From the IMG/VR virus record IMGVR_UViG_3300045911_000549, positions 1 to 27,311 of that record: a DNA stretch of 27,311 nucleotides; one strand, written 5' to 3'. Positions 5,709-23,751 of this stretch are shown here, one piece after another. Position 1 is the first letter of the stretch; every line of letters begins with the position of its first letter. Below the pieces are notes generated by a model. The model saw only the letters and a list, made by a program, of their open reading frames with translations. It did no database searches and had not been told where the DNA came from. The position numbers and the translations under genes are program-made. This DNA is from a virus (lineage: Duplodnaviria > Caudoviricetes).

Positions 5709-5833
5709 TCGAAAGGTTAAAGATTGGGCTGGCAGCCGTAGAACCTTTGGCTAAATGGCTCACCCTTATAATCGCTATTCTATTCGTTGCATTTCTGTTA
5801 GATAATCTAAGGTTCCCAAAAAGAAAAAGGTAA
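5705..5833 (+). CDS. Small single-TM membrane protein (42 aa; holin-like candidate), not in the ORF track
   Basis: ATGA overlap with the upstream stop. Translates MIERLKIGLAAVEPLAKWLTLIIAILFVAFLLDNLRFPKRKR and ends 4 nt before the next ATG. Confidence 0.55.
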   Translation: MIERLKIGLAAVEPLAKWLTLIIAILFVAFLLDNLRFPKRKR

Positions 5834-5837
5834 AAAT

Positions 5838-7616: not shown

Positions 7617-8215
7617 AACTATTTGCAGCCTTCGGGCTTCTGGCTTTTTTCGGGGCTTTGATGCTCCCCGAAGCCCACTCCGATTGTCGTAGGGTAATCG
7701 TCGGGGGGCAAACTTACGCTGCCCCCGTATATGCTGCTCCGATCTACCACCAAGCCCATGAAAACATTGTACTTGTGCCAAAGGCATTTCTGGTGCAGAC
7801 CCGTAGCGACTACGCTGCGGGAATCGGTGACGAGATTCGGCAGAAGCAATTTGCCAAAGATGTCGCCGACGAGCTTTACCGGATGATCCAAGAAGCCCAG
7901 CGATATCAAGCCCCTCCCCAGACAGGGGGGCAGACCAGACCACCCGTAGATGTAACTCCGAATCCTGCCCAGCCTTTGAAAGCCGAAGGGGTTACCATCA
8001 AGGATGTTCTGGCAAAAAATTGTGTATCCTGTCACGGGAAGGGTGGGAATCTGCCCCTACTGACTGGGGACCCCGACAAGATCGACTACTTAATTCGGGG
8101 GGATATCCTGAATGCAGTCGTCGAAGGCAGAATGCCCAAAAACAAGCCTGCCTTAACGCAGGAGGAACTTAACGTCGTTCACGCTTGGCAGGATCGAAGA
8201 AAAGCGAAAAAGTGA
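7613..8215 (+). CDS. Secreted monoheme cytochrome c domain protein
   Basis: Signal peptide MKLFAAFGLLAFFGALMLPEAHS. C-terminal KNCVSCHG, distal-ligand GRMPK and LTQEELNVVHAW helix fit a class I / Planctomycete cytochrome c fold. Confidence 0.8.
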   Translation: MKLFAAFGLLAFFGALMLPEAHSDCRRVIVGGQTYAAPVYAAPIYHQAHENIVLVPKAFLVQTRSDYAAGIGDEIRQKQFAKDVADELYRMIQEAQRYQAPPQTGGQTRPPVDVTPNPAQPLKAEGVTIKDVLAKNCVSCHGKGGNLPLLTGDPDKIDYLIRGDILNAVVEGRMPKNKPALTQEELNVVHAWQDRRKAKK

Positions 8216-8310
8216 TTGTATCGGGCAGATTCTTTGAGATAATATCTTTTTCGCTGTCAGATCGGGCGTAAAGCTACGTTACCCTTCTGTCTTTCTTCAA
8301 AGGAGATTTT

Positions 8311-8796
8311 ATGCGATTTTCTGCAATTCTGACCGCTCTGGGCCTTTTGGCTTTCGGGGCTGGCAATTCCTTCGCTGGGGATTGTTTGCGTATCAATCCT
8401 TCGGCTGGGGCAGCTTTCACCACAGGGGCTTACTCGCAAGGCTTTTCTGGGGGCTGCTCTGGGGCCTACACAGACGCACCTACCCAGACCCTTGAGATTC
8501 GCGGATTCTCGACGGGATCGGCTTACGTTGCCCCCCAACCGATTGTTTTGCGGGAAGTTGCACCCGCTCCGGCTTATCATCAAGGGCAGGCAATCGTTGT
8601 GCGACAGTTCAACGCGGGTCATGCTTACGGTGCCCAACAACCGGTGATTCTGCAACAACGAGCACAACCCGTAATTGTTCGTCGTCAAGTTGTCGTTGCA
8701 CGACAACAAGGACAAGCACAACAGGGGGTAGTTGGATTACTTCGAGTCGCTGCCAATACCGTCGCTGGTGTCGCTGGTGCTCTCATCGGTCGATAG
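8311..8796 (+). CDS. Secreted Val/Gln/Gly-rich protein
   Basis: Signal peptide MRFSAILTALGLLAFGAGNSFA, AAGGAG RBS, low-complexity QPIVLR/QPVIV repeats, C-terminal glycine-zipper-like helix. Confidence 0.7.
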   Translation: MRFSAILTALGLLAFGAGNSFAGDCLRINPSAGAAFTTGAYSQGFSGGCSGAYTDAPTQTLEIRGFSTGSAYVAPQPIVLREVAPAPAYHQGQAIVVRQFNAGHAYGAQQPVILQQRAQPVIVRRQVVVARQQGQAQQGVVGLLRVAANTVAGVAGALIGR

Positions 8797-8882
8797 GTTT
8801 GGATCGCCCCCTTTGTATTCCCTGATTCTGACACTTTCAAATCCTGTTTGGAAATCACGTCCACCACACACTAAGACTTTCA

Positions 8883-9074
8883 TCAGATACCCCCTCCGTC
8901 AGCAAGTTCACAGGGGACGGGTGTCGCGTTCTTCTTCTCGATGCGTCTTTCTTCGATCAGGTTGAACACGTCGGCGATCATCAGTGTGGGATAGATCACC
9001 ACAAGGAACGGTATCGCCAGCACGATTGCAGCGATAGCGAACGGGGCAAGGACGATCAGTTTCAAGAGTTTCAC
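8883..9074 (-). CDS. Small membrane protein
   Basis: Hydrophobic N-terminal ~35 aa; GGAGG RBS before the GTG start. Confidence 0.6.
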   Translation of the reverse strand: MKLLKLIVLAPFAIAAIVLAIPFLVVIYPTLMIADVFNLIEERRIEKKNATPVPCELADGGGI

Positions 9075-9116
9075 TGTTTGGCCTCCACTTGCTTGATGGT
9101 CATTTGTGCGATGTTG

Positions 9117-9413
9117 CTACTCTGCGTGTTTCGCAGTTCTCAAATATCGCTCCGCCGTTGCCGATGGCTTGATGATTGTGCAAGCGTCAAGAACACACAC
9201 AAGATCGTCCGAAGGTCGAGATAACCTATCATTCTCGCCCTCAATAGAAGAGACATCGATCAAGGTAAGTCGATGCACAGAGTTACTCCATTGATGAATG
9301 ATGCGAGCATTTTTCAACCAAACCTCTCGGCCATTGTGGTACTGATATTCTCCGCACAGGCAGCCTGATTCCCGCGACCGCACAACAACATAATCCCCCT
9401 CAGCAAAAGACAT
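9117..9413 (-). CDS. DUF6948-like phage protein (Sm/LSm-like beta barrel)
   Basis: YVVVRSRESGCLCGEY...GREVWLKNARIIHQW matches the DUF6948 pattern. It has its own GAGGAG RBS (9420-9425) but is also in frame with the upstream Gly-rich ORF. Confidence 0.7.
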   Translation of the reverse strand: MSFAEGDYVVVRSRESGCLCGEYQYHNGREVWLKNARIIHQWSNSVHRLTLIDVSSIEGENDRLSRPSDDLVCVLDACTIIKPSATAERYLRTAKHAE

Positions 9414-9794
9414 ATAAGGCTCCTCAAAATAATGATTTAACTTTGTAAATCCCCCATACCCATACCCAGACCCAGATCCAGACCCAGACCCAGACCCAGA
9501 CCCATCCCCATACCCAGACCCAGACCCAGACCCAGACCCAGACCCAGACCCAGACCCAGACCCATACCCATACCCAGACCCAGACCCATACCCATACCCA
9601 TACCCAGACCCAGACCCATCCCCATACCCATACCCATCCCCATACCCAGACCCATACCATCGGAGAGGTCGAGCAGGCGGAAGAATACCCTCCCTGCGAA
9701 GCCAATCCTCGGCGATGAAATAACCTCTCTCCCCGCACCAATCGGCGGCAATTAACGGACGATGCAACAACAAACGCAGGTCTTCAGGTATCAT
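9414..9794 (-). CDS. Gly-Ser/Gly-Tyr repeat protein with a degenerate TIGR02996-like N-terminus; reads through into DUF6948
   Basis: RPLIAADWCGERG resembles the RLVYADWLEERG motif and is followed by about 34 G-X dipeptides. No stop codon before the DUF6948 ATG. Confidence 0.55.
9453..9656. repeat. Hexanucleotide tandem repeat (CCCAGA/CCCATA/CCCATC) encoding (G-S/Y/D)n
   Basis: Directly visible 6-bp periodicity over about 200 bp. Confidence 0.95.
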
Positions 9795-9810
9795 GCAATT
9801 ACCTTTTGAA

Positions 9811-9918
9811 TCAGATTGTTCCATTCCCGAAAGCATCACGAACCCGCTTTCCTACCGGCATTCCCGCACGGGCGAGAAAGGGCTTTTCGTCGGTGTTCGG
9901 TTTCTCCGTTGCGTTCAT
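9811..9918 (-). CDS. Small hypothetical protein (35 aa)
   Basis: ATG at 9918 with AGGT RBS, downstream of a promoter. Translates MNATEKPNTDEKPFLARAGMPVGKRVRDAFGNGTI. Confidence 0.35.
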   Translation of the reverse strand: MNATEKPNTDEKPFLARAGMPVGKRVRDAFGNGTI

Positions 9919-9934
9919 GGTTTACCTGTGCTAT

Positions 9935-9994
9935 AGTTACTGGTAACTAAGTTACTCGACAACCAAAATATACAGTTCTTAGGAATTCTGTCAA
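9935..9994 (-). promoter_or_regulatory. Sigma70-type promoter with overlapping GTAAC/GTTAC inverted boxes
   Basis: TTGACA(9994-9989)-N16-TATATT(9972-9967). Palindromes AGTTAC-TG-GTAACT and GTAACT-A-AGTTAC lie at 9935-9955. Confidence 0.55.
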
Positions 9995-10226
9995 CTAGGT
10001 GGTTGGGGCAGCTCTGCGAACGGTCGGTAATGTCGCTGGGGCTATTATTGGCCGTCCATGATCTTGACAGCATAGGTGAAGATTTGGTACAATATCTTTG
10101 CCAAGATTATTGCTAGGGGCTTGGTCGATCCCTTACAAAATCTTCCAAGCCCCTTCGATATCGAGGGGGTCTTTTTTCTCGGCATAAGTATGTCCCATTA
10201 TTGATTCTCCAAAGGGGCTTCTGGGA

Positions 10227-10397
10227 TCAGGGGCTCGACATCCAAAGACCCAGCCAAGACTTATACAGGCTTTGGCCTTCGATCCCCGCACACAAGCGAA
10301 GTGTATCAACGGGGGCCTGTCGGTTACGGGCAGCAAATGCGTCCCAGCGTTTGTGGGCTTCCCCGATCATATCGAGGAATAATTTAGAGATATTCAT
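10227..10397 (-). CDS. Small hypothetical protein (56 aa)
   Basis: ATGA overlap with the DUF1064 stop; translates MNISKLFLDMIGEAHKRWDAF... Confidence 0.4.
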   Translation of the reverse strand: MNISKLFLDMIGEAHKRWDAFAARNRQAPVDTLRLCAGIEGQSLYKSWLGLWMSSP

Positions 10398-10948
10398 TTC
10401 CTTTTCCTCTCCCCTTTCGGGGGTTTCATAGTTTCTCTGATCTTATGCCCGTATAAGGCATAGAGTAATTTTTTGCGGATAACGTAGTCCCTTCTTTTGG
10501 CAGTTGAAGGGTTTTTGAAGTCTTCAACGATATAGATTTCTTCCCCAGCTTTGCCGATTTCCCAATAGCAAAAGTCAGCCGTGTAAGTGCTGATCCTTTC
10601 CCCGTTTACGATCAAGGGAAACTCAACCTGCCTTTCCAATCCCCGAAGCTGCCCGATGGCTTGCAGCCGTAGTAATTCGATCCAACGGTCTCGCTCCCCG
10701 AGGGAATGGAAAGTCTGCCCGTCGAAAATGGTAATTTTGTTGTTGAATTTGCCCCGTCGCTTGGGCTTTTCTGGGGTTGGGGTTGGGGCTGGGGATATCG
10801 AAAGATTGGGGGCAGCGAAGGGCAAGAAAATCGGCTTGTCTTCCTGCCCTTCGAGGGCTTCGATTCGGGCTTTTCTAACTGTTAGATTGCTGCCCATTTT
10901 CAGGATCAGGTCGTTCACTTCCTGCTCCGTCATTCTGATTGTTGGCAT
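10394..10948 (-). CDS. DUF1064 family PD-(D/E)xK endonuclease
   Basis: KFNNKITIFDGQTFHSLGE..RW, LERQVEFPL, YTADFCY, IVEDFK. Confidence 0.85.
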   Translation of the reverse strand: MPTIRMTEQEVNDLILKMGSNLTVRKARIEALEGQEDKPIFLPFAAPNLSISPAPTPTPEKPKRRGKFNNKITIFDGQTFHSLGERDRWIELLRLQAIGQLRGLERQVEFPLIVNGERISTYTADFCYWEIGKAGEEIYIVEDFKNPSTAKRRDYVIRKKLLYALYGHKIRETMKPPKGERKRK

Positions 10949-11468
10949 TACTTGCTCGCTGGGTAAAGTAGTTGGCCCAAGCCTCCTCGATCAATTCGGC
11001 TTTTTTGGCCCCGATTGAATATCAGTATAGGGACGGCTGAATTGCCCACCTCCTTGCGGGTTTGTGAATTCGTGCAGGCCCCCGAGGGTATTGATATTTG
11101 TGCCCCGAAGCTTTTGGATAATCGGCTCGGGCAGGCCCAGCACTTTGATATCTTCCCGCATCCAAGAGATATCTTCCCCCGAAGTATTGAGGGCAGGGTT
11201 TACGGCTTGCCCGTTAAAAAGGGTGTTGGAAGGCTTGCCCCTGCCACGCTCCCTATCTTCGATCAGGTCGGACAATTCGAGAAGCAACTGTTCTTTGATC
11301 TTGGGAGCATTGCTGGCGGCCGGCCACACAGCATTCTTGCCAAAGCCGTTTGGTTTCGCGGACTTGCTTGTTCTTTTCGCTTACGAGCTGCAAAGTTTCT
11401 TCGTCGTAGTAGCTAATGGCTTCGATCTCGATTTCGTTGGTCGGCTTAATCTCAACGGGATCAAGCCC
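10875..11468 (-). pseudogene. Frameshifted gene with an RNA polymerase alpha-CTD-like (HhH) domain
   Basis: Protein-like text spans three reading segments: ...EETLQLVSEKNKQVRETKRLWQECCVA / ASNAPKIKEQLL...IKVLGLPEPIIQKLRGTNINTLGGL...YTDIQ / IGAKKAELIEEAWANYF. Shifts fall near 11320 and 11015, and there is no clear in-frame start. Confidence 0.5.
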
Positions 11469-11471
11469 CTT

Positions 11472-13109
11472 TCAGACTTCTTTCTTGTAAGGATTTACGT
11501 GATACTCAGGCAGGGGGGGCCTACCGACCCCCGTAAAAGGTCGATCCACTGCCCGAAGCCAATTCAATTTGCAGAGATAGCTCAAAGGCCCATTCAGCTT
11601 TTCAATCGACGAAAAACGCTTGTTTCGGCATAAGCTACTCCAAGCCTCAGCACGGGTAAAAGTCCAACGCTTCCCGTTGATAATCCATCGCCACACAGCT
11701 TCGACATCGGGGATACGGCTGTCCATATGCCCTATTCCAATTACCTTAGCCGCATGTTTGCGAAAGTATTCAGTCACTTCGGCTGCCTTTGCCATCGATA
11801 CCCCCGAAACGGTTGTAGGCTCCGGATCATGCTCCCGACCCGGTGTGCTGGCCCAATCAAGAAGCTCGATAATTAGCGAAAGCCTTGCACAAAGGTCTTT
11901 CGATTTTCCCCAGAAGCTCCGAAGCTGGGGAGGGAATAAAGGGTCGTTGCATTCTTTTGCCAATGCGTCTCGCATTTCGCACCAAACTTCCCAAGCCGAT
12001 TCTGTCAGGCGCAGCTTTCTATCTTGGGTATGACGGGGGCACGGGGGCTCTGGGTTTTGATCGGTTGCCAGCGTCGGCTCGGCTAAATCCATTGGGATCG
12101 ACCAAAGTTTTCGGCATGTTTCCCTCCAAGTTACCCAATGGGAAGTTTCCCACTTTTTCCCGTCTTCCCCCTGCTCGGGCAATTCTTCGGGATAGCACCA
12201 CGCAAACCGCTCAGCAAAGCCGTCGTCAAATTGGAATAGCTCAGGCAATCGGGCAGGCTGCACCGATCCCATCAAGGTTACGGTTGGGGCTGAAAGGCTG
12301 ATCGTGTTTTTGGAACCCTTACGAACGATGGTAAGATTGCCCCCGTCTGCCAGCGTGAGAAATTGTTGCCTATCCCCCCCTTTGCCACCCCTGTATTGAT
12401 TCTGCCCCAGAAGCCACCCGAGGATCTCGTCGCTATGAATAATCAAGCCCCGTCGCTGGCAATACAAAAGCTCGGCAAGCCCTTCGGCTGTCATATCCGT
12501 GACGTACAATTCCCCTTCACCCGGTGGGTAAATTTTCAATTGGGGATGCTTTTCTCGGGGATTGATTACCCTGCAAAGCAAGCCAGCTTCGGACCGACGA
12601 TCCTGCTCCCGTCGGACCGGCTCCATTAGCTTTCGCATTGCTGGGGATTTTTTGGCATATGAGGGGCCAACAAGAACAAGGTTCAGCCGGGCAGTGTGGG
12701 TATATCCGTCCTTGATTTCGACCTTTCGGGTGGCCCCGATACACCCGGCTGCCACAGAAAGGGCACTGGTGGCAGCGTAATCTATCGGGCATTGAACGGC
12801 TTGGGCCAGAAGGTCCACGGCTTCCCCAATTTTGTCGTGAAAGATGTGCAAGGGGAATTTGGGGACAGCTTCGCTGGTCGTTGGCCCCAAAGGGAGCGGG
12901 GCTTCCCAATCGGTCACCACTGGGATGTAGGGCTCTGGCTCTTTGCCTTTCGCTTTGGCCTTCACTTCGGCTTCTTTCTTTGCTGCCCTGTATTTATCTT
13001 TCGCTGATGTCACGGGGGTATCCTTTGGAATTATGGGGGTATTAGCACGACTTCCATTTACGATTTTGCTGGGCTTCGATCTCTGCGACCCAGCTACGGA
13101 GAAGGGCAT
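11472..13109 (-). CDS. DUF3987 (YfjI-like) replication helicase/primase-associated protein
   Basis: FPLHIF...AVQCPID, LNLVLVGPSYAKKSPAM (degenerate Walker A), TDMTAEGL, SDEILGWL, GSVQP, DGFAERF, and a C-terminal winged-helix-like region. Confidence 0.85.
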   Translation of the reverse strand: MPFSVAGSQRSKPSKIVNGSRANTPIIPKDTPVTSAKDKYRAAKKEAEVKAKAKGKEPEPYIPVVTDWEAPLPLGPTTSEAVPKFPLHIFHDKIGEAVDLLAQAVQCPIDYAATSALSVAAGCIGATRKVEIKDGYTHTARLNLVLVGPSYAKKSPAMRKLMEPVRREQDRRSEAGLLCRVINPREKHPQLKIYPPGEGELYVTDMTAEGLAELLYCQRRGLIIHSDEILGWLLGQNQYRGGKGGDRQQFLTLADGGNLTIVRKGSKNTISLSAPTVTLMGSVQPARLPELFQFDDGFAERFAWCYPEELPEQGEDGKKWETSHWVTWRETCRKLWSIPMDLAEPTLATDQNPEPPCPRHTQDRKLRLTESAWEVWCEMRDALAKECNDPLFPPQLRSFWGKSKDLCARLSLIIELLDWASTPGREHDPEPTTVSGVSMAKAAEVTEYFRKHAAKVIGIGHMDSRIPDVEAVWRWIINGKRWTFTRAEAWSSLCRNKRFSSIEKLNGPLSYLCKLNWLRAVDRPFTGVGRPPLPEYHVNPYKKEV

Positions 13110-13482
13110 TTTGCTTTTCGGCTTCGGCCAGCCTAATCTCTAATTCTGCGACTTTTCCAATCAAGAACTCATTATCTTCGCTGGCAGATTGGAGTTTTGG
13201 GCCAATCTGGGCAGCAAGATCGGAGCAAGCTGCCCCCGTTGCCAATTCTACCACCTTCCAAAGGAGATCTAAAACAGGGGCTTGAATATCCCCCTGTCGC
13301 TCAATTTCCCGAAGTGCTTGCCCAATTTGATAGCGGGGTGATTCGATTGCCCGTAGGGTATCCTCAACCGTTCCCCGGGCTTGGCAAAAGGGCTCCGTTC
13401 TGGGGCTGGGTAGTGAATTTGACATCTGTTTTAGGTATCGATTGAAGGGTTGGGGTTTGCAAGGGGGTCGTCCCTGATCCAA
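13042..13482 (-). CDS. Hypothetical protein with a C-terminal coiled coil
   Basis: 146-aa ORF filling the gap between the YqaJ and DUF3987 genes; start uncertain. Confidence 0.55.
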   Translation of the reverse strand: MDQGRPPCKPQPFNRYLKQMSNSLPSPRTEPFCQARGTVEDTLRAIESPRYQIGQALREIERQGDIQAPVLDLLWKVVELATGAACSDLAAQIGPKLQSASEDNEFLIGKVAELEIRLAEAEKQNALLRSWVAEIEAQQNRKWKSC

Positions 13483-13533
13483 TTAGTCCGAAAGGAGAAT
13501 TCTTTCGGCTGCCCAGCCACCAAAGCCCTGTAA

Positions 13534-14226
13534 TTAACTTGCCCCATTTTCTTTTCTCCATTGTTGAATTCTCTGCCAGAATTTCTCGACTTCGGGCAGG
13601 ACTTGCTCCTTAAATACCGATTCGTTTTTCCTGATCTTTATAAGGGCCAATTGATCCCGTTCGGAAAACCTTTTGAGATTGTCTGAGTAGGAGCAATACC
13701 AGCACTCGTCCAAGCCCGTGACGTGGAGCTGCCATTGAACTTGGGGCATGTAAATAAGGGGAGGCTGCCCCATTAAAGCAAGCTGGTGTTTCTGCCAATC
13801 CAAGCACTTAATTGCCAAAAGGATCGGCTGCCCTTTGTGAAGCCCGATCCCGTCAAGGCTGGCCCTTTTCCAACGGTCGGCTTCCCCGATCATCTGGCAG
13901 CAAGCTGCATAAAATTGGATATCGTATCTTTGCTCGGTGAGGAATCGGGCAGTCGGTTCAAGCCCTGCCCCCCGTCGCATTGCAAAGGATGATTCTGTCT
14001 CCCAGCCGGGCTCGCTGGTTTTTTGCCGAAAGATCTTTTCTGCCCCTCGGTCATCGTAAGGCCAATCTTTCCCGAAATAAATTGGGCCAATATCAGACCC
14101 CCCGATACCCCAGCCACGCCAAAGATACCAGTCCCGGCTTCGCTGATCCAATCGCACAAGCTTGCAGCGATCCCGAAGGGGGGCCATGCTAAAGATCGAT
14201 TCTAGGGGGTCGGTGTAATTGCTCAT
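13534..14226 (-). CDS. YqaJ-like (lambda exonuclease family) recombination nuclease
   Basis: QRSRDWYLWRGWGIGGSDI, MRRGAGLEP, RASLDG, LAIKC (E-x-K position is Ala), YMPQVQWQLHVTG. Confidence 0.85.
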   Translation of the reverse strand: MSNYTDPLESIFSMAPLRDRCKLVRLDQRSRDWYLWRGWGIGGSDIGPIYFGKDWPYDDRGAEKIFRQKTSEPGWETESSFAMRRGAGLEPTARFLTEQRYDIQFYAACCQMIGEADRWKRASLDGIGLHKGQPILLAIKCLDWQKHQLALMGQPPLIYMPQVQWQLHVTGLDECWYCSYSDNLKRFSERDQLALIKIRKNESVFKEQVLPEVEKFWQRIQQWRKENGAS

Positions 14227-14272
14227 AAACCCCTCTCCGGTTTCGCACCGGCTGCCCCCGAAGGGGAGGTTT
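14227..14272 (-). ncRNA. tRNA-like three-way RNA element (UUCG hairpin + T-loop-like arm) covering the YqaJ RBS
   Basis: AAACCT-CCCC TTCG GGGG-GCAG-CCGG TGCGAAA CCGG-AGAGGGGTTT immediately before the ATG. Confidence 0.45.
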
Positions 14273-14366
14273 CGTTCGGGCTGGAAAACAGATGGTAAAA
14301 TCTGCCCGCTAAACAGAGGGGGGATAAATGATCCTGATTCGGGGCAGGATCGACCCCCGAAGCTGG

Positions 14367-15047
14367 TTAAGCTTCGACGTTTTGGTTGGCTTCGGCTTCG
14401 TTCATGTCCCGTTGGTATCGCAGCTCATCCCGTTTGAGGGCTTCCTTGTGGATGCGAAGGAAGGCACTGTAAAAGTGATTCCCCGTGTCCTTTTCATCCT
14501 GCAATACGGGGCAGCCTGCTTGAACGGCTTTAATATGCTGATCCCCAACAGACCGAAAGAAGTCTCGGCTTTCTCGCTCTCGCATTTTTTCAACGGGAAT
14601 GCAGCCGATTTTGGAAAGCTGGAAGCAATGAAAGAGGGCCAGCTTCGTGTCCCGAAGCAAAAATACAACCTCCTCGGGCAGATCGATTTCGGCTTTGGCA
14701 AGGGCCTGATAAATCTGGGAAAGGCAGCCAGCCGTTACCCCGAAGGAAATTGTAGCATTCACCATCAATTCCTTGTGGGTATCTTCGGGGTAATCGGGAA
14801 GCATTTGAACCTGTTGCCGAACATTTTCAAAGCCCCACATTTCGGGGGGCATCGGAACCTCAGATTTGGCAGCCTGAATACACATGTGGGCCTGCCCGTT
14901 GTACTTCCTGTCTTTTACCAGATCATCCCAAGAGAAGTCCTTGTTCTCGGGAACATCGTCCATGCTGATCGTTAGCTCGGACTTTTGCGTACCGATTTCT
15001 TTGGGGCCTTCTGGCCACGCATTGTTTGAAAAATACATTCTTGCCAT
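14367..15047 (-). CDS. Hypothetical phage protein
   Basis: 226-aa ORF with GGAG RBS, co-directional with the operon; no family recognised. Confidence 0.7.
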   Translation of the reverse strand: MARMYFSNNAWPEGPKEIGTQKSELTISMDDVPENKDFSWDDLVKDRKYNGQAHMCIQAAKSEVPMPPEMWGFENVRQQVQMLPDYPEDTHKELMVNATISFGVTAGCLSQIYQALAKAEIDLPEEVVFLLRDTKLALFHCFQLSKIGCIPVEKMRERESRDFFRSVGDQHIKAVQAGCPVLQDEKDTGNHFYSAFLRIHKEALKRDELRYQRDMNEAEANQNVEA

Positions 15048-15066
15048 CGATCTATCTCCGTTTATA

Positions 15067-15108
15067 GTAACATAGGGGATCGAACCCTACCCCAGCCTTT
15101 GCTGTTAC
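15067..15108 (-). ncRNA. tRNA-like minihelix element (acceptor-like stem + T-arm)
   Basis: GTAACA...TAGGG TTCGATC CCCTA-TGTTAC: a 5-bp T-stem with a TTCG loop stacked directly on a 6-bp closing stem. Confidence 0.55.
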
Positions 15109-15398
15109 GGCTGGGGGCTTCTAGCGACTTCGCTGAGGCTGGGGCTGGCTTTGCCATTACTCATCTTCTCCTCTTCTCCTTTCTGGGGCTTTCCTTTTCG
15201 GCTGATCTTGGGCAGCCGTTTACCTTTTTGCAGGTTGCAAAGGGTAGACCAGATTTCTTGGTTGGTATATCCGCTCGGGCATCGTTTCCGGAACCGAAAG
15301 GCAATACTCGTAAAAGATCGAGTGTAGGGTAGCTGATCGAGGGGAACCCCCATATCCGAGTACAGCTTGACCAGAATTTGAATATCACTTTCTTTCAT
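15105..15398 (-). CDS. Small basic protein (LDQLPYT...IWSTLCNLQKGKRLP family) directly downstream of the solitary CRISPR repeat
   Basis: Probable true start is ATG 15398 with AGGAGG at 15405-15410. The ORF-track start MAELK at 15494 lies inside the repeat. Confidence 0.7.
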   Translation of the reverse strand: MKESDIQILVKLYSDMGVPLDQLPYTRSFTSIAFRFRKRCPSGYTNQEIWSTLCNLQKGKRLPKISRKGKPQKGEEEKMSNGKASPSLSEVARSPQP

Positions 15399-15420
15399 AA
15401 TGAACCTCCTATTGTCATCT

Positions 15421-15470
15421 AAGCGTTTGCTCCGGACTCGAACCAGATCCTCTCGCGAGAAGATACCAAA
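15421..15470 (-). ncRNA. tRNA-like element (hairpin + T-arm) just 3' of the solitary repeat
   Basis: GTTTG-GT-ATCTTCTCGCGAGAGGA-TCTGG TTCGAGT CCGGA-G-CAAAC; canonical GGTTCGAGTCC T-arm at 15431-15447. Confidence 0.55.
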
Positions 15471-15478
15471 CCTACCAC

Positions 15479-15514
15479 GCTTCAATTCGGCCATGCTTAT
15501 TCAAGCATGGAAAT
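15479..15514 (-). CRISPR. Solitary CRISPR repeat unit (type I-G-like); candidate RNA anti-CRISPR / crRNA-like RNA
   Basis: The reverse complement is 36/36 identical to the repeat at 50-85. It is intergenic and in sense orientation in the early operon, with no second repeat at spacer distance on either side. Confidence 0.85.
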
Positions 15515-15555
15515 GATATATCGTTGTGCTTTGATGCACCAGATTAAGTAACAGA

Positions 15556-15753
15556 TCACGGCTTTTCGTCGCGGATGATTGCCCCGTTGGGGCCTGCCTT
15601 TAATACAATTTTGGGGCCTTTTTTTAATCCCTGATAAATCCAGACTGCAAGATCACGAAGGGCATCAATGGCTTTATCTCGGATTTCAATATCTTGAATA
15701 TCTTCGGATATACCATCCTCTAATTCATTGAAAATCTTTTGATAATCTACCAT
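15556..15753 (-). CDS. Small hypothetical protein (65 aa) upstream of the solitary repeat
   Basis: AAGGA RBS, acidic N-terminal half, co-directional with the operon. Confidence 0.65.
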   Translation of the reverse strand: MVDYQKIFNELEDGISEDIQDIEIRDKAIDALRDLAVWIYQGLKKGPKIVLKAGPNGAIIRDEKP

Positions 15754-15784
15754 TGATGTTCCTTTGTTTGATTGGGCTGCCCGA

Positions 15785-16372
15785 TTATCTTAATCGGATC
15801 GGCTGGGGGCAATTCCCGTTAGGGCAGCTTTCTTGATTCGGATACACGACCCAGCTTCCCGAGGAGCCTTGATTGGGATAAGGGAAGCCGGGGGTGCGAT
15901 TGAGATAAAAGCTTTCGACCCTTTGGGCTTCGGTCTGTCTTGGATCGATCCCAACGGACTCAGGGCTTGGCAGAATGATCGGGGCAGAAACAGGCCCCGA
16001 AGAAATTGCCACAGCTTGGGTAGGCCATTGGCATTGGGTAGTTACTCGGCGGGTGCGATTGAGATAAAAGCTTTCGACCCTTTGGGCTTCGGTCTGTCTT
16101 GGATCGATCCCAACGGACTCAGGGCTTGGCAGAATGATCGGGGCAGAAACAGGCCCCGAAGAAATTGCCACAGCTTGGGTAGGCCATTGGCATTGGGTAG
16201 TTACTCGGCTGCCCCCTGATCCACCGCAAGGCTGGCAGAATCGAACAGGCCCACCGCACGATCCCGATTGCAACGGCTGGCAGGGGAAACACCGGAAAAA
16301 GAAAGCTTCGGCTTTCGCTGGGGCAAAAACAAAAGCCCCCAATCCGAGAAGGGCAAACAACAATTTTTTCAT
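15785..16372 (-). CDS. Secreted Cys/Pro-rich protein with an internal 53-aa duplication
   Basis: Signal peptide MKKLLFALLGLGAFVFAPAKAEA, C-terminal SCPNGNCP, AAGGAG RBS. Confidence 0.75.
   Translation of the reverse strand: MKKLLFALLGLGAFVFAPAKAEAFFFRCFPCQPLQSGSCGGPVRFCQPCGGSGGSRVTTQCQWPTQAVAISSGPVSAPIILPSPESVGIDPRQTEAQRVESFYLNRTRRVTTQCQWPTQAVAISSGPVSAPIILPSPESVGIDPRQTEAQRVESFYLNRTPGFPYPNQGSSGSWVVYPNQESCPNGNCPQPIRLR
15892..16209. repeat. Perfect 159-bp tandem duplication (15892-16050 / 16051-16209)
   Basis: Both copies begin GGGTGCGATTGAGATAAAAG and end GGGTAGTTACTCGGC; the duplication is in frame. Confidence 0.95.
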
Positions 16373-16761
16373 ACTACCAACTCCTTTTTTTGGGGTTTCG
16401 GGATCTCAAAAACATTGAACTGGTAAAGATCGATCAAAGGCTTATCTGGGCTGCCAACGATCAGGATTCCCCCGAAAGTTTTGGGCAGATTGTAAGCCCC
16501 TGAAAGGTCAGCACCAACCACCTTTACAGTGTGCTGCAAGCCAAGCCCGAAGCTGAATTGATTGTTGGCCCTTCGGAGGGTATCCGTTCGAAGGTCAGAC
16601 CATTTCATCAATATACAGCCGAGCGGATTGTTGGCTTCGGCTTCGATCAGGGTGCGAGCAAAGCTGGGGCTGCAAACCTTGATCGATTGTCCGAACCCTG
16701 CCCTGATTTTTTCATCGGGGAGGGACAGCTTTATTTCTGAATTCACCAAAACGACCAGCAT
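16369..16761 (-). CDS. Hypothetical protein
   Basis: 130 aa, GGAG RBS, stop overlaps the next ATG. Confidence 0.7.
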   Translation of the reverse strand: MLVVLVNSEIKLSLPDEKIRAGFGQSIKVCSPSFARTLIEAEANNPLGCILMKWSDLRTDTLRRANNQFSFGLGLQHTVKVVGADLSGAYNLPKTFGGILIVGSPDKPLIDLYQFNVFEIPKPQKKELVV

Positions 16762-16778
16762 AAAAACTCCACAGGCGA

Positions 16779-16874
16779 AACGTCGTTCCGGAGTCGAACC
16801 GGAAAGGCCCCCACATCCAAGATCGTAGGATAAGTAAAACGATCTTTTTCTCTTGCCTTTGCCCAGCCGACGTT
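16779..16874 (-). ncRNA. tRNA-like element with an enlarged middle arm
   Basis: Closing stem AACGTCG/CGACGTT, internal stem AAGATCGT/ACGATCTT, T-arm TCCGG TTCGACT CCGGA (16787-16803). It fills the intergenic gap. Confidence 0.6.
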
Positions 16875-16880
16875 CTCAAT

Positions 16881-18395
16881 TTACGAGGACACCCCCTTCC
16901 CAGTTTCGGCTTGCCCGACCAATCTGGCTAGGGCAGCTTTGCTCATTGGGTCAATCCAATCGTATACTCGCTGGGCAATCGTGCTGGTAGTATTTTCCCA
17001 GCTATCCCCCAGCATTCCCGTTGGTTCGATTTCCTGTAATTGCTTCCAGCTTATCCCCTTCGCTGCTGCCTTGATCCCCAGCCGTGAACGGATATCCACA
17101 GCACCGTGAAGGTCTACGGCTTCCTTCGGAACCGAAGGGGGCTCCCATGCGTCCCCTTTTTCGTCGTCCCCTTCCCCTTCGGCTGGCTCATTGCTGGGGA
17201 CATGCGTATTAGGTAAAGGGACTTCCCCGTATTCGTCCTCCCGTTGCTGGGCATTTTTTGCCTTAGGCTCGGGCTCGTTTATTGGCCCTTCGCAAACATA
17301 GTGGTCGGGGCTGGGGTCGATGAGCTTAGTTGCACGCAAGGCAGTGTAAATGGCCTGCCCTTCGGATAGAAAAAGCTCCTCGGGCTTACGCACATCCCTG
17401 CCAATCACCCGGCTCATCATGGCCCAAGCCCAACCTTTTGGATATTGCAGCCGTTTCAATTCCCCGACGATTTTGTCCCAATCGGCTGGGGTGATCTTTG
17501 TCTTATCTGGGGCAGGGGCAGGGGCAGGGGCAGGGGCAGGGGCTGGGGCAGGTTGCGTATTCACGGCTGGCCTTATATTTGGATTTCTGTTTTCTGTTTG
17601 ATTCTGGGGGGCCTGATCCAACGAAGGCTTCGCTTTGGCTTTGGCGATTGCCGAAGCAATGTTGTTCCAACATTCTTTTGCTGACGATCCTGCCCGAATA
17701 ACCTCGGGCAAGCCGTAACGATTCTTGGCGACCACTGCCAGATTAGTCGATGTCCTGACGATCCTGCCCGATAAAGACTTCACTTTGTCGTCCTTGATCT
17801 CGCTCTGGTATCCCCCGAACAACATTGCATCTGCCCATTTGTGGGTAAGCTTGTAAAGCTCTTCCACCCCTTCGGGCTTATACTGGTCGTAGTCTTGGGC
17901 TTCGGGATTGTTGACCGTTTTGATCTTGGTGTGCGATAGCAAAAGGATCGTCATACGCCTTTGTTTCCTGATTTGATCCAAGACCCGTAAGAAGCCTGCC
18001 CATTCGTCCACGCAAGATTTTGCCCCCTGCCCGTAGCTGTTAAATTTGGCTGGGGAATTATCGTAGTATTCGGCTTGAACGTGCTGGCAGAGGAGTCTTT
18101 CAGCTCCGTTGCTGGTATCGATGACGAGGGTTTTGAATTCGTGATCGGCTTTAAGAACCTGATCGACACAGCTCATAAGCTGTCTCCAGCTTTTGCAATC
18201 CTCGGGAAAGTGTGCCGTTTCCCCGACCCGTTTGGCATCGATCAATTCAAGAAGCCCCGTTTCGCCTTCCGTCATAATAAAGACCGGGTCTTTGGCAAAA
18301 GCCCCGAGCGAGGATTTCCCCCAGCCTTCGGGGGCATAAAAGTAAATACGGGGGGGCAGGCTTTCAGTCGTTCTTACGACATTTAGCGGTGGCAT
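16881..18395 (-). CDS. AAA_24 / Sak4-like ATPase (phage single-strand annealing recombinase) with an (Ala-Pro)n linker and C-terminal extension
   Basis: Walker A YAPEGWGKSS, Walker B TLVIDT, LLLSHT, KWADAMLF, AKNRYGLP. ATG at 18395 follows a GGAG RBS. Confidence 0.85.
   Translation of the reverse strand: MPPLNVVRTTESLPPRIYFYAPEGWGKSSLGAFAKDPVFIMTEGETGLLELIDAKRVGETAHFPEDCKSWRQLMSCVDQVLKADHEFKTLVIDTSNGAERLLCQHVQAEYYDNSPAKFNSYGQGAKSCVDEWAGFLRVLDQIRKQRRMTILLLSHTKIKTVNNPEAQDYDQYKPEGVEELYKLTHKWADAMLFGGYQSEIKDDKVKSLSGRIVRTSTNLAVVAKNRYGLPEVIRAGSSAKECWNNIASAIAKAKAKPSLDQAPQNQTENRNPNIRPAVNTQPAPAPAPAPAPAPAPDKTKITPADWDKIVGELKRLQYPKGWAWAMMSRVIGRDVRKPEELFLSEGQAIYTALRATKLIDPSPDHYVCEGPINEPEPKAKNAQQREDEYGEVPLPNTHVPSNEPAEGEGDDEKGDAWEPPSVPKEAVDLHGAVDIRSRLGIKAAAKGISWKQLQEIEPTGMLGDSWENTTSTIAQRVYDWIDPMSKAALARLVGQAETGKGVSS
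17509..17552. repeat. GGGGCA hexamer repeat encoding an (AP)n linker
   Basis: About 7 tandem copies visible. Confidence 0.9.
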
Positions 18396-18578
18396 TTCTG
18401 GCTCCAAGAGTCAATAAAAAGGATGAGGGTTAAAAGCCCCAAGCCTATCAATCCTGAGATGGCAAAGGGGTTGCTGGTCTGGTGCTGGCAGGCAATACCT
18501 ACCAAGACAGCCAAAATACAGGCAGAAAAAAATCTCATTATCAACGTTCTCCGATGTTGATTTCCCCTCTTGGGGAAA

Positions 18579-18649
18579 GAATAGGCTGGGAATCGAACCC
18601 AGATTTCCCCCTTGTTTCGGGGGCTTCGCTACCGTTGGAATACCTATTC
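18579..18649 (-). tRNA. Full-cloverleaf tRNA-like gene with a non-canonical anticodon loop (nominal AAC)
   Basis: GAATAGG-TA-TTCCAACGGTAGCGAA-G-CCCCC GAAACAA GGGGG-AAAT-CTGGG TTCGATT CCCAG-CCTATTC. Acceptor, anticodon and T stems are perfect; it lacks U33 and an encoded CCA. Confidence 0.65.
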
Positions 18650-18772
18650 AATAGGGGTGGTGGATTCTTGCAGCCGTCCGTTGCTGAATCGATATCCCCC
18701 GTAGCGTCCTTGCTTCGCCACCCCTGATCTTTGTTTAGTAAATCGGCGTTGTAGCGTCAATACTAAAATCCG

Positions 18773-19009
18773 CTATTTAGAATTTTCCTCTTGGAAGGTG
18801 CAGAAAATTCTTTGATCCTGCCCCCCGATCTTGCAAGCAATCCAGCCTTTCCAGATACTTACGCAACCATAATCGTTTACAAGGCTGACCCCTTCGAGCT
18901 TCGCTTGCTCTGCCCCTATTCGCTTGCAGATTGCCCTAAGAGCATTAGGTCGGCTTTTGCATCGGGTCGAGATAAATTCTTTGTTGAATCGGATTGATAG
19001 CTCTACCAT
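18773..19009 (-). CDS. Small hypothetical protein
   Basis: 78-aa ORF co-directional with its neighbours. Confidence 0.55.
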   Translation of the reverse strand: MVELSIRFNKEFISTRCKSRPNALRAICKRIGAEQAKLEGVSLVNDYGCVSIWKGWIACKIGGQDQRIFCTFQEENSK

Positions 19010-19054
19010 TCTGGTATTGTACCAATCCCTTAAGGGAAAAGGGGCAGCGAAAGG

Positions 19055-19786
19055 TTAGTAAGATCGGATGAGACGGGTCACGGCTACAATGTTTCCGTTT
19101 TCCCTGATTGCCCCATCATTAGGCCCTGTTCCCGGGTAAAAAATATCAGATCGGCTGGCCCCAATCCTCGAAGCAACAATGGCTGAGACGATATAAACCT
19201 TTCCAGCTTCTGGGGCAGGAATTCCTTCGACCTCGCCGAAAGTTGTTCCTGCCCAAAAGAATCCTGTCAAAGCTGCCCCCGAGGTTGTGGCGACTCGTGC
19301 AACGATCCCAGACGGTTCAACGATGATCTTTTCTTCCCCCCACAAGATCGTTATCTTGTGGGGGGTCAGATTGACCAGCTCATAATTTTGCGGAACAGGG
19401 GGCTTTGAAGCTTGGGCTTCCTTCACGAAAGCTTCAAGGTCATCAAGGCGTTTTGCTTGATCGGGATACGATTGTTGCAAGATTTTACGGGCATTCTCAA
19501 GACTGACTTTCAGCCTAGCTCGCACTTCTTCCCAACTATTGCAATCATCCCCCCAAGTCTTGTGCAGGGGAGAAAGCAATTCGATTGCCCGAACCCCTTC
19601 GCACAAAAGAAGTTTGTAATCAGTAAATGACCACTTTCCGTTTTTTGTGTATTGCTCGGATGATATCGCATACCACCCAGCTTCGTTGCTGCCCGTAAAG
19701 GCAAGTACCTCGTTTCCTTTGGCGAACCAAAGATGAGGACGACGGTTGCCTGCTTGCAAACCGTTGTTGTAATTGTAAATTTCCAT
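19055..19786 (-). CDS. Two-domain phage protein; C-terminal NLTPH-motif domain
   Basis: ATG 19786 after AAGGAG. The C-terminal LVNLTPH...PSGIVARV...GIPAPEAGKVYIVS...RSDIFYP...RENGNIV belongs to a widespread small phage protein family. Confidence 0.7.
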   Translation of the reverse strand: MEIYNYNNGLQAGNRRPHLWFAKGNEVLAFTGSNEAGWYAISSEQYTKNGKWSFTDYKLLLCEGVRAIELLSPLHKTWGDDCNSWEEVRARLKVSLENARKILQQSYPDQAKRLDDLEAFVKEAQASKPPVPQNYELVNLTPHKITILWGEEKIIVEPSGIVARVATTSGAALTGFFWAGTTFGEVEGIPAPEAGKVYIVSAIVASRIGASRSDIFYPGTGPNDGAIRENGNIVAVTRLIRSY

Positions 19787-19882
19787 AACGCTCCTTTTTG
19801 TCATTTACTTACAATCTGGATAGTTCCCAAATGACAAAAAACTATCCAAAAAAATAAAATCTTTAGGCTGGGCTTATCAAGA

Positions 19883-20101
19883 TTAGAAAGCTCGTCGATC
19901 CCCTACCCAGACTTCGACGATTCGGGGCCGATCCAAAGAATTCCCGTATTGAAGGGATTCAATTTGCATTAAGGCAAAGACTTTTTTGACCACCGAATCG
20001 TCGGTTTCATTCGGGTAAGGCCCCATGTTTACGAATCGGGCAGGGATACCGTTCTTGCTGTTCCATTCGGTTGTTACTAAAACTCTGACTGCAATGTTCA
20101 T
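19883..20101 (-). CDS. Small hypothetical early protein
   Basis: 72 aa, GGAG RBS, first gene after the promoter at 20138-20166. Confidence 0.65.
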   Translation of the reverse strand: MNIAVRVLVTTEWNSKNGIPARFVNMGPYPNETDDSVVKKVFALMQIESLQYGNSLDRPRIVEVWVGDRRAF

Positions 20102-20137
20102 CTGTTTGTCTCCGTGTAGCGTAATTGCTATGTAAGT

Positions 20138-20166
20138 ATCTTATCCGCTATAGCGGATTATTACAA
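20138..20166 (-). promoter_or_regulatory. Early promoter with a 16-bp palindromic operator in its spacer
   Basis: TTGTAA-N17-TAAGAT; perfect palindrome ATCCGCTATAGCGGAT at 20143-20158. Confidence 0.7.
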
Positions 20167-20303
20167 GTGAGATTCTGGGAATTATTGAGATTTATTTTTG
20201 AAGGGAAAAGGGAAAGAAGGGGCAGGGGCAAGGGCAAGGGCTTTATTCGGCTGGGGCTTCTTCGGGCATCGGGCTTTTTATTTCTTCGGTTTGGCAGCAA
20301 GTC

Positions 20304-20340
20304 AAAAAAACCCCTGCAAGATTTTTAGGTCTTGCAGGGG
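20304..20340 (-). terminator. Rho-independent terminator
   Basis: CCCCTGCAAGA/TCTTGCAGGGG stem followed by a T7 run on the minus strand. Confidence 0.65.
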
Positions 20341-20399
20341 TATCGGAGAAAATCGACCTTGCAGAAATGCGAGCTAGGTCATCCCCTTTTATACGAATT

Positions 20400-21010
20400 T
20401 TCGCAGGGCAGTAAAGACTGAATGTGTCTTCATTTTCTGATCCAATCAGGCACTACCATTTTGCCCCCTTTTTTGATCGATTTTTCTCCCCCTAAATCTT
20501 ATCAAATTTTGGTCAAAATTCAAAGTATCGAATTTTCCGGCTGCTCCTAATTTAGGATAGCCTAATCTACCTAAATCTTTGCAGAATAAGACCTTACAAA
20601 ATTGTAAATTTACGCTATAGCTACGGCTTACTTAATCTGACTTTATTTGATTCGCTTGTCGAATTTAATCTAAGTGCTTGTGCTGCAAGGCTTTAGGTGG
20701 TACTATCTGGCAAATTTTACCTACTAAATCTGACTTTCGTAAACCCTTATCCTACAAGGGTTTAGGTACTTAATTTGATTATTCAGACAATACCATATAA
20801 GTATTTTATTAAAGAAGGAGTTTTAAGAAATAGATAGTATACTTCATATATATCTATGGTTGTCGAATTAATCAATTTTAATATCTAAACCCTTGCAGGG
20901 TAAGAAGTTAGATAGCTCAATTTTATGCGAAAAAATGCGGAAAAAGTCAGATTTATTTAACCCCTTTGTCGATAATATGTTATGATCGATTTTTTGGGCT
21001 TTAATTTCTA
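20400..21010. promoter_or_regulatory. AT-rich non-coding control region (ori/packaging-like) with five TAA-N4-TT-N7-AA-N4-TTA sites
   Basis: No ORFs. Dyad sites start at 20572, 20671, 20740, 20886 and 20958. AATCTGACTTT and TTGTCGAATT are repeated, and an extended -10 (TGtTATGAT) lies at 20978-20986. Confidence 0.65.
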
Positions 21011-21027
21011 GGGGGTTAAAATCGCTT

Positions 21028-21494
21028 ATGGCAGCCGATCATTTACAGGGGGTAGAAAGTCCAAATGACCACCCAAAATCGATTCTCGGGGCATCTGGTG
21101 CGAAGCTACGGCTTGAATATCGAAAAGCTTCTGAATTGGTCGAAAATCCTAAAAATTGGAGACGACACCCGCAAAGTCAGATCGACACCCTCGGCGATGT
21201 CATCTCGCAAGTAGGCTGGGCAGGGGCTTGTTTGCTTAACGAAAAAACGGGTAGGTTAATCGACGGGCACGCAAGGCAAAAAGTGGCCCTCCAAAATGGG
21301 GATGTTCCTATCCCTGTTTTGATCGGGTCGGCAAACAATTTACCAGCACCCGAAAATTTGGCAAGACCCATCAAAATGTGTTAGTATTTGTAAAGGGAGA
21401 CGCTCGCAAGGCTGTCGAAGCTTTGGGGGAATGCGTTTTCGGGGAGCTGCCCGACCCCGACCAAGCCGAAGGAGAACCCGATGGGCAAGCCTAG
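21028..21494 (+). pseudogene. ParB-N / DNA methyltransferase fusion gene with a large internal deletion
   Basis: The ParB-like NPKNWRRHP...GRLIDGHAR...IPVLIGS is joined out of frame at ~21324 to RVGKQFTSTRKFGKTHQNVLVFVKGDARKA..., the C-terminus typical of phage ParB-methylases. Confidence 0.7.
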
Positions 21495-21906
21495 AAAGCT
21501 TTCGTCTCAATCCCCCCTGCTCAGGACAATAGTAAGAACGATTCCCCCATTGTCGGGGGATCAACTACGGGATAGCTCTACGGCTGCAGACGGGTCAGGG
21601 GCAGCCGGTTACGAAGCTGGGGAGCCTATTCAGCAAACACAATTTATTTTTCGCATGGATGATAGTTTTGAGTCCGAGTCAAGCGATTGGGTTAGCCGAG
21701 CGGAATGGTTTAAAGACGGGTCAGCTATCGGAAGCCCCGGGCCTTGTGTTGTCGTGACCTACAAAGACAAACAAGGGGCTGAAACCGTATCGTGCCTTTA
21801 TTCCGGTTTTACCAGATACCAGTGGCGTCTTTTTCTCGCTGCCCCTTCAAAAGGCAAATTTGTCCACCGTTGGCTATACGATAAACCTTACCGGAAAATA
21901 GGGTAA
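21481..21906 (+). CDS. KTSC domain-like protein
   Basis: ESSDWVSRAEW...WRLFLAAPSKGKFVHRWL matches the KTSC pattern; AAGGAG RBS. Confidence 0.6.
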   Translation: MGKPRKLSSQSPLLRTIVRTIPPLSGDQLRDSSTAADGSGAAGYEAGEPIQQTQFIFRMDDSFESESSDWVSRAEWFKDGSAIGSPGPCVVVTYKDKQGAETVSCLYSGFTRYQWRLFLAAPSKGKFVHRWLYDKPYRKIG

Positions 21907-21928
21907 TTACTCTAAATAGTGTACAATT

Positions 21929-22321
21929 ATGACCCCCCTGAGTCGTGATCCCGAAAGAATCAAAAAAGCCCTTACAAAGTGCAAGGGTAATATCTCGCAG
22001 GCAGCCAAAGCCCTTGACGTAACCCGGGGCTGGCTGCACACGTTAATAAATCAATATCCCGAATGCTTAGAAATCGTCGAAGATGCCCGTCAGGAGCTTG
22101 TTGATCTTGCCGAGCTAAAGATGCACCAGTTTGTTCTAGAGGGACAGCCGTGGGCTGTTTCGCTTACCCTTACGCATCTTGGGAAGAACCGGGGCTGGAC
22201 GAAAGAAAAGGAAGAGAAAAAAGAATCTTTGGAGACCTTACTTGATCTCTTACCCCCCGAGCTTGCCGAACCAATTAGGGGATATATTGCTCGAAAGATT
22301 GCCGAGGCATCTGCTCAATAA
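21929..22321 (+). CDS. Terminase small subunit-like HTH protein
   Basis: Fis-type HTH ALTKCKGNISQAAKALDVTRGWLH followed by VDLAELKM..GQPWAV..L..LGKNRGW; lies immediately upstream of TerL. Confidence 0.7.
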   Translation: MTPLSRDPERIKKALTKCKGNISQAAKALDVTRGWLHTLINQYPECLEIVEDARQELVDLAELKMHQFVLEGQPWAVSLTLTHLGKNRGWTKEKEEKKESLETLLDLLPPELAEPIRGYIARKIAEASAQ

Positions 22322-23750: not shown

Positions 23751-23751
23751 T

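Follow-up and report, generated by a model that had tools for sequence, protein, structure and literature searches.

Does a single CRISPR repeat that lies between two small genes of a phage early operon, with its end overlapping a tRNA-like fold, give rise to an RNA anti-CRISPR, and if so, which part of the transcript would act? The window, i.e., the whole stretch of DNA analysed here, is an entire virus record of 27,311 bases, with terminase, portal and tape-measure genes on the plus strand, and an early arm on the minus strand where AAA_24, YqaJ and DUF3987 genes (Pfam and PHROG assignments) stand among many small genes without assigned function. At least half of the words from 13500–19000 are contained in 10 of the 12 listed sequencing runs, all 12 are labelled hot-spring or microbial-mat metagenomes, and no RNA dataset containing phage words is among them. 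Three relatives were used for comparison: G001, a circular record of 32,242 bases that is near-identical to the window over most of its length; G002, a related phage with a portal protein 52% identical; and L056, a more distant relative with an AAA protein 37% identical. Two differences from G001 are noted in passing. An exact 159-bp tandem duplication within a 195-aa gene (15892–16209) is absent from G001 and present in a further locus (L052), and a DUF6948 gene with a long Gly-Ser/Tyr/Asp repeat (9117–9998) includes a block that is missing in G001. This block is 99.5% identical to two pieces of L056 that are 2.4 kb apart there, and represents either a recent exchange or a second mis-join.

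The solitary repeat, its likely host and its flanks

The repeat (36 nt, 15479–15514, minus strand) is the exact reverse complement of positions 50–85 (36/36), and is oriented in the sense of the minus-strand early genes, as the initial annotation had described. No other copy within 13 mismatches exists in the window, and none of the 27 window ORFs scanned with Pfam belongs to a cas family, in agreement with the earlier statement that partner repeat and cas genes are lacking. A hairpin with an 8-bp stem and a 4-nt loop is formed at 15491–15510 (z −2.75); its stem probability in context is about 0.9 at 37 °C and about 0.4 at 60 °C, the latter being inside the range of 0.07–0.91 calculated for 30 host contexts. 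In type I-G, Csb2 cuts 4 nt past the hairpin and leaves an 8-nt handle (10.1101/2022.08.08.503147), which agrees with the handle rule that the annotation had applied, and by analogy, the cut is predicted between 15487 and 15486 with the handle at 15479–15486. Upstream of the repeat is a 65-aa gene (15556–15753, minus strand) that has no Pfam or PHROG family and is identical in G001. Downstream, a 129-aa ORF call begins inside the repeat, but a ribosome-binding site (AGGAGG, 15405–15410) favours the 97-aa form of this gene (15105–15398, minus strand). The 97-aa protein has no Pfam or PHROG family. Within it is an unnamed domain spanning roughly 65 aa, for which a search gave 122 relatives (E ≤ 0.001); these are often tandem or fused, and structural look-alikes occur on Planctomycetota TIR and methyltransferase proteins.

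G001 carries the same single repeat in the same place, with one base different in the surrounding 900, and should be regarded as a second assembly rather than an evolutionary replicate; the unit is present in these two assemblies only. Contigs over 14300–15880 were built from four runs representing three samples (X1 and X3 are one sample). X1 and X9 each provide one contig that runs from 14300 into the repeat and another that runs from inside the repeat to 15880, at depths of 10.2 and 7.8 in X1, and 41.8 and 34.9 in X9, so that the two junctions for which the annotation had proposed a read check are each entered in two samples. No joint that skips the repeat is present in X1 or X9, and both flanks are unbranched; X3 covers only the left side of the repeat and X11 neither phage flank, and these runs do not bear on the joint. 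Since a mis-join driven by a spacer would branch at the junctions, and none of them branches, the solitary unit is real, and an assembly artefact is ruled out by the second assembly together with the unbranched flanks in X1 and X9. The 31-mer contigs cannot span a 36-nt repeat and hence cannot count the repeats between the junctions; the two assemblies give one.

The copy at 50–85 is a different matter. Positions 1–85 (plus strand) comprise a partial repeat, a 37-nt spacer and a repeat, the last of which the annotation had called an array repeat. In a contig of the same strain (L051, 99.7–99.9% identical), the match to the window begins at base 86 exactly; further upstream, L051 continues as tape-measure gene, with TTT directly before base 86. 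The gene is also intact at this site in G001. Thus, an array belonging to the phage is ruled out. One of the array spacers has the same sequence as the phage from base 86 onwards, and it is through this spacer that the array piece was wrongly fused to the tape-measure gene. The spacer at 13–49 has no match in the phage records compared. Because the array spacer equals phage sequence behind TTT, i.e., a TTN PAM as described for type I-G (10.1101/2022.08.08.503147), the chimeric join indicates that the I-G system in the source sample targets the window phage, and that the phage is under immune pressure. The array piece could instead belong to another phage.

All 12 genome matches of the repeat are on contigs from a single Gemmataceae genome, the likely host, which holds 288 repeat copies within three mismatches and is the only one of 301 genomes of the host's class to match. 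In the 27 host loci that were fetched, 93 of 269 repeat copies are identical to the phage repeat and 153 are one base off. Contig C289 encodes cas3g, cas8g2, cas7g, csb2, cas4g/1g and cas2, all above the NCBIfam cut-offs, followed by a leader and two repeats that each differ by one base from the phage repeat. With a complete I-G operon adjoining an array of a 1-nt repeat variant, the type I-G assignment made in the annotation holds, and the proposed search for host and subtype leads to a single Gemmataceae genome and to I-G. None of 240 spacers from the fetched loci of this genome, a fragmented draft, matches the 11 phage records and loci compared, and the host link therefore rests on the repeat and on the chimeric join. 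A search by terminase gave no host prophage; the host has no match to window positions 86–9400, and for 9700–27311 each of the 150 matches listed of 302 is the repeat. Elsewhere in the host genome (G003, C254; L035, 7134–10080), a second cas2 and a cas1 flank a group II-type reverse transcriptase, and the repeat is not nearby.

Compared with the SRUFinder definition of a solitary repeat unit, identity to a known array repeat is 36/36 (at least 90% identity and coverage is called for), the unit is intergenic with no other repeat within 100 bp and no cas genes, and its subtype matches that of the host, the host link being made through repeat identity and the chimeric join. Based on the host-identical repeat, the I-G operon, and a hairpin predicted to fold in context, we thus retain the solitary repeat in the early operon as a plausible Racr candidate. 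The repeat has no match in metagenome contigs, and only one chance 21-mer was found among annotated phages. G002 has a mini-array of five copies of the same I-G repeat (482–808; L002), with no likeness to a leader, and with four spacers that have no match in the phages compared; a tRNA with a TAT anticodon is located at 1603–1675 of the same phage.

The 64 nt directly before the repeat (15515–15578, minus strand) resemble the host I-G leader, with which they share a 9-mer (15560–15568) and a 6-mer (15548–15553). An end-anchored alignment gives a score of 34. Among 7786 phage 64-mers, 0.1% score this high, and the nine other leaders all remain lower (8–26); the comparison includes 10 of 30 cas4/1g loci, namely those where an array was found. 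In local alignments, 25–28 of 2000 shuffles do as well at 60–80 nt, and there is no signal at 150 nt. The shared 9-mer falls in the final codons of the 65-aa gene, and is not confined to this place in the phage. A conserved leader motif is positioned at 50–51 nt in 9 of 10 I-G leaders, whereas its phage counterpart is broken and lies at 54 nt, with a score of 1.2 vs 20.1 for the host, and 16% of random positions score as well. With this motif broken and displaced by 4 nt, the phage stretch does not qualify as a functional I-G leader-repeat, i.e., a target for adaptation, and judging from the alignments it is likely a decayed remnant of a host leader and not a working one. Seven promoters were found near the repeat against 7.5 expected, and none stands out. 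The 5′ end of a decoy RNA may therefore be 0.3–1.3 kb upstream, which would make the RNA far longer than RacrIF1 (70–76 nt).

tRNA-like elements in the early operon and their overlap with the repeat

A strict T-arm motif occurs four times in the window, with starts at 18602, 16803, 15447 and 15089, compared with 0.07 expected per simulated window (100 simulations). Each of the four has the orientation of the early genes and falls between genes, in an arm that is 15% intergenic. Element 1 (18578–18649, minus strand) is a full cloverleaf with a 7-bp acceptor stem and a non-canonical anticodon loop, called by ARAGORN as tRNA-Val(aac); the same slot in G001 is occupied by a different, three-way-junction RNA with a T-arm at G001 30612–30628. 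The T-arm of element 2 (16787–16803, minus strand; T-stem probability 0.9) is placed directly after the AAA_24 gene, and the corresponding slot in L056 has a full cloverleaf right after its AAA gene (L056 594–669). Element 3, which overlaps the repeat, is discussed below. In element 4, the 6 nt that come after the T-arm (15073–15089, minus strand) are complementary to a hexamer further upstream, and the element has a weak mascRNA match (E 8.4, far under gathering). None of the four ends in CCA, and elements 2–4 each end 25–33 nt ahead of a start codon. Taken together with the relatives, these tRNA-like RNAs form a set in which the T-arm is perfect and the anticodon arm odd or missing, and which fills exchangeable slots of the operon; Rfam does not describe such a set. 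Rfam gave no match at gathering, and of 10 weak ones (E 0.68–8.4) none is credible; a likeness to C4 antisense RNA and to Y RNA was considered and dropped, being without Rfam support. Base pairing across six T-arms is complete (30 of 30 cells, with 8 double changes), but the arms were chosen by a pairing rule and this covariation is not independent evidence. Two other structured stretches on the minus strand may be mentioned: a stem-closed one just upstream of element 1 (18650–18730), after a promoter-like site near 18760 and replaced in G001, and an intergenic gap without a T-arm (14227–14366), with a weak Rfam ribozyme match on the opposite strand (E 2.3) that is not credible alone.

The annotation had described the tRNA-like element as fused to the repeat. 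Such an element is not unique to the repeat, since the same operon has three sister T-arm elements that lack one. In G001 and L056, T-arm RNAs likewise occupy matching slots with no repeat. As for the same arrangement in related phages, the single repeat recurs in the near-identical G001, but the T-arm RNAs of G001 and L056 elsewhere in the operon are repeat-free. The pattern is not family-wide, since G002 has a single T-arm, in a canonical-looking tRNA. From these sequence comparisons, the T-arm elements are likely older processing marks that did not evolve for the repeat. A full-length RNase Z-like gene is present in the host genome, with a score of 279 bits, just short of the cut-off of 293.

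Element 3 (15421–15482, minus strand) is closed by a helix in which the last four repeat bases plus two (15477–15482) pair with 15421–15426, and contains a D-like arm (15462–15476), a GNRA-capped arm (15448–15461), and the T-arm (15431–15447). The T-arm, TCTGG-TTCGAGT-CCGGA, starts 32 nt past the repeat and is thus where the annotation had placed it, about 30 nt after the handle. The compact tRNA-like fold that was claimed around it is supported by the motif, one of four in the operon, but not by the folding energy, which is unremarkable (z = +0.64, +0.04 and −0.75 against shuffles), nor by the T-stem probability of 0.18–0.24, the weakest of the four elements. The reality of element 3 therefore follows from the recurring T-arm motif and not from its folding energy. 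With the T-arm formed, the cloverleaf adopted by the RNA beyond the predicted Csb2 cut lies 1.3–2.2 kcal/mol above the minimum-energy fold; the closing helix is present in the minimum-energy fold at 37, 55 and 65 °C. ARAGORN calls the element only at a cut-off that yields 24 sites in the window, and not at default or −ps90, there is no Rfam match at gathering, and the middle arm has a 4-nt loop, all of which set it apart from a tRNA gene. Conserved T-arm motif, non-canonical cloverleaf and position at a gene boundary are instead the features of a t-element. Four unpaired bases separate the T-stem from the closing helix, a geometry that, as modelled, would be poor for RNase P and RNase Z.

Candidate roles of the repeat

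A reading that we tentatively prefer, at somewhat less than even odds of being right, is a RacrIF1-like I-G decoy that ends in the repeat hairpin, placed on an older tRNA-like processing mark and with a decayed leader remnant upstream. The early message, carrying one exact copy of the I-G repeat of the likely host, would serve as a decoy in the manner of RacrIF1. The repeat hairpin would be bound and cut by Csb2 of the host, which would then remain on the upstream piece, and Cas7g would coat the RNA behind Csb2, so that both are drawn off real guides. The four tRNA-like elements would be t-element-like marks for host RNase P and RNase Z that predate the repeat, and the repeat, accompanied by part of the host leader, would have been inserted at the 5′ end of element 3, whose closing helix it now provides. 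Once cut off by Csb2, the downstream product would take the shape of a tRNA mimic in which the handle is paired, and trimming by tRNA enzymes would free the message of the next gene; this product would not be loaded as a guide. The host-identical repeat, the I-G operon, the four T-arms and the conservation of their slots are seen in the sequences; transcription, all cuts, binding, and an effect on immunity are what we infer here. The upstream, hairpin-ended piece is the candidate decoy because Csb2 has a KD of 43 nM for the 3′ hairpin product and no appreciable affinity for the isolated handle (10.1101/2022.08.08.503147), and because, by analogy, inhibition by RacrIF1 is accounted for by the upstream product, which carries Cas6f and a Cas7f filament (PMC10651486). 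Data for the isolated handle leave binding of the handle in the assembled complex possible. Selection on the repeat is weakly favoured by its 36/36 integrity beside a decayed leader-like stretch; a perfect repeat fits a recent capture too, and two assemblies that are one base in 900 apart provide no evolutionary test of selection.

Somewhat unlikely, in our judgement, is that the unit is a scar of capture. In this case, the phage would have acquired a host leader together with the first repeat and the most recent spacer, by recombination at the protospacer which that spacer matches (in the 5′ part of the tRNA-like element), and the repeat end would have replaced the PAM and rendered the site immune. 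The phage would gain escape at the DNA level, and any RNA would be a by-product, or else a guide directed at siblings without the insert. The order of leader-like stretch, repeat and phage-type sequence is as expected from such an event, and the host system targets the phage according to the chimeric join. Furthermore, the T-stem is followed by two bases that pair with the last two of the repeat, and 2 nt separate the repeat from the D-like arm. This spacing is that of a canonical tRNA, and looks as though the repeat had been written over the remainder of the acceptor strand. We infer that the complement of the orphan 3′ strand (15424–15430) would hold a TTN, but 1–2 nt from the junction and thus 1–2 nt off register for a PAM. 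The sequence downstream of the repeat is matched by no host spacer, and a neutral scar should decay as the leader part did. In addition, no joint skipping the repeat occurs in the four runs, and no repeat-free allele or sibling was found, either through the T-arm pattern, the 97-aa protein or its 76% relative P0002, or through a terminase alignment, which gave 12 loci, none covering the repeat site in a new phage.

A more elaborate form of the preferred decoy, which we consider improbable, would have the repeat wired into the tRNA-mimic punctuation. The handle would serve as an acceptor-like helix, RNase P or Csb2 would release a hairpin-ended RNA that soaks up Csb2 and Cas7g, and the fold would hide the handle, block a stray guide, and give the downstream gene a clean 5′ end.

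The annotation itself had proposed that Csb2 makes the 5′ end and that the tRNA-like fold stands in for the second repeat, in that it defines or protects the 3′ end. In this model, the product would be loaded into I-G Cascade, either mimicking a crRNA or serving as a guide, in a Cracr-like role or against competing elements. Guides composed of a single repeat, a spacer and a 3′ hairpin do exist (CracrVA1; 10.1101/2024.10.29.618823), engineered t-elements release working crRNAs in the Haloferax I-B system, where the 3′ handle is dispensable (PMC6546412), and the 31 nt from handle to T-arm would correspond to about five Cas7 steps. However, the fold does not follow the spacer zone but sits in it: it begins at or inside the handle, fills the 36-nt zone, and pairs with the handle. 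Host spacers are 34–40 nt. With the fold in this position, and with Csb2 binding the hairpin and not the handle, it is unlikely to cap a guide. As modelled, a cut by RNase P at element 3 would land inside or just after the handle and would destroy the guide rather than finish it. The known anchor of Csb2, the hairpin, is absent from the downstream piece, and if RacrIF1 is a valid analogy, inhibition would come from the upstream one (PMC10651486), which argues against the downstream piece as a loaded guide.

Nor did the 36 nt after the repeat give a TTN-PAM target above chance in host or phage sequences, as the annotation had envisaged. For the downstream 99 nt, the best host match (E 0.1) is the T-arm of a host tRNA. 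A PAM-plus-seed search gave two host matches against two in the reversed control, and none in four related phage records; a longer pattern gave two host matches with two mismatches and none in the control, roughly as expected by chance (an estimate of 0.6). The host cas contig has nothing beyond nine seed matches, none of them with TTN, and none of the 17 viral matches to the 36 nt exceeds 22/36. A PAM-flanked partial match to a cas or toxin promoter, as in Cracrs, was likewise not found in the sequences searched, where the host is represented by a fragmented draft. A guide capped by the tRNA-like fold is thus quite doubtful.

Even less probable is that the phage uses Csb2 as a further endonuclease on its early message, possibly tying expression of the 97-aa gene to an active host I-G system. 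The operon is punctuated at four gaps, and the closing helix and its extension end about 8 nt from the ribosome-binding site, but the tRNA-like element already offers a cut at the same gap, and we found no precedent in the literature searched. Very unlikely, finally, is a use at the DNA level (as a target or sink for Cas1–Cas2–Cas4, or as an attachment site for host arrays) or a mini-array collapsed by the assembler, for while G002 has its five-repeat mini-array, the short contigs do not span the repeat, and repeat-mediated integration is cited as a precedent, the leader motif is degraded, two assemblies show one repeat, and no integrase family was found among the 27 window ORFs (Pfam).

Relation to known systems

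As for the solitary repeat units that give rise to Racrs (PMC10651486), the window unit has one intergenic repeat matching the host, no partner within 100 bp, no cas genes, a matching host subtype, and small genes of unknown function nearby. It differs in being of type I-G, in having no dedicated promoter that could be found, and in having the repeat end built into a tRNA-like fold. Solitary I-G repeats as such have been catalogued already, with ‘I-G’ appearing 50 times, two per row, in supplementary file 3 of the same work (Camara-Wilpert et al. 2023), where the function tests described concern I-C, I-E, I-F and V-A only; the window repeat is absent from the nine supplementary files searched, and the words ‘tRNA’ and ‘leader’ from the main text.

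The tRNA-like elements are similar to the t-elements of Arabidopsis mitochondria, which mark mRNA ends and have the same T-arm motif (Forner et al. 2007, PMC1920247). In both cases, there are non-canonical cloverleafs with a GGTTCRANYCC T-arm and no CCA at gene boundaries, proposed as marks for RNase P and RNase Z, but those in the window are candidate marks in a bacteriophage early operon. In the Haloferax icrRNA, the t-element follows the spacer, whereas the window element overlaps both handle and spacer zone (PMC6546412). CracrVA1 shares with the window unit a single phage repeat followed by spacer-length sequence and a 3′ hairpin, but in Cracrs about 10 nt match a cas or creT promoter next to a PAM, and no such match was found here; the main text of that report has no mention of an I-G Cracr (10.1101/2024.10.29.618823). 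Viral CRISPR mini-arrays also consist of phage repeats identical to those of the host (PMC11656645), and the one in G002 uses the window repeat, but the window unit has one repeat and no target for the sequence that follows. A natural fusion of a CRISPR repeat with a tRNA mimic was not found in the literature searched, outside which subscription journals and bioRxiv supplements lie.

Type I-G has no separate Cas5. A hairpin decoy in such a system therefore provides a testable prediction, namely that the upstream piece is active and the handle dispensable, for which an in vitro system exists. No I-G Racr is among those tested in the defining paper (PMC10651486). If the repeat is wired into the tRNA-mimic punctuation, it would be the first I-G RNA anti-CRISPR, and the first to be matured by tRNA-processing enzymes. 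If the tRNA-like marks are cut, this phage operon would be punctuated by t-elements and would show a way for an anti-CRISPR RNA to be matured by tRNA enzymes. Even as a capture scar only, the locus would still record the transfer of a leader-repeat unit from a host array to a phage.
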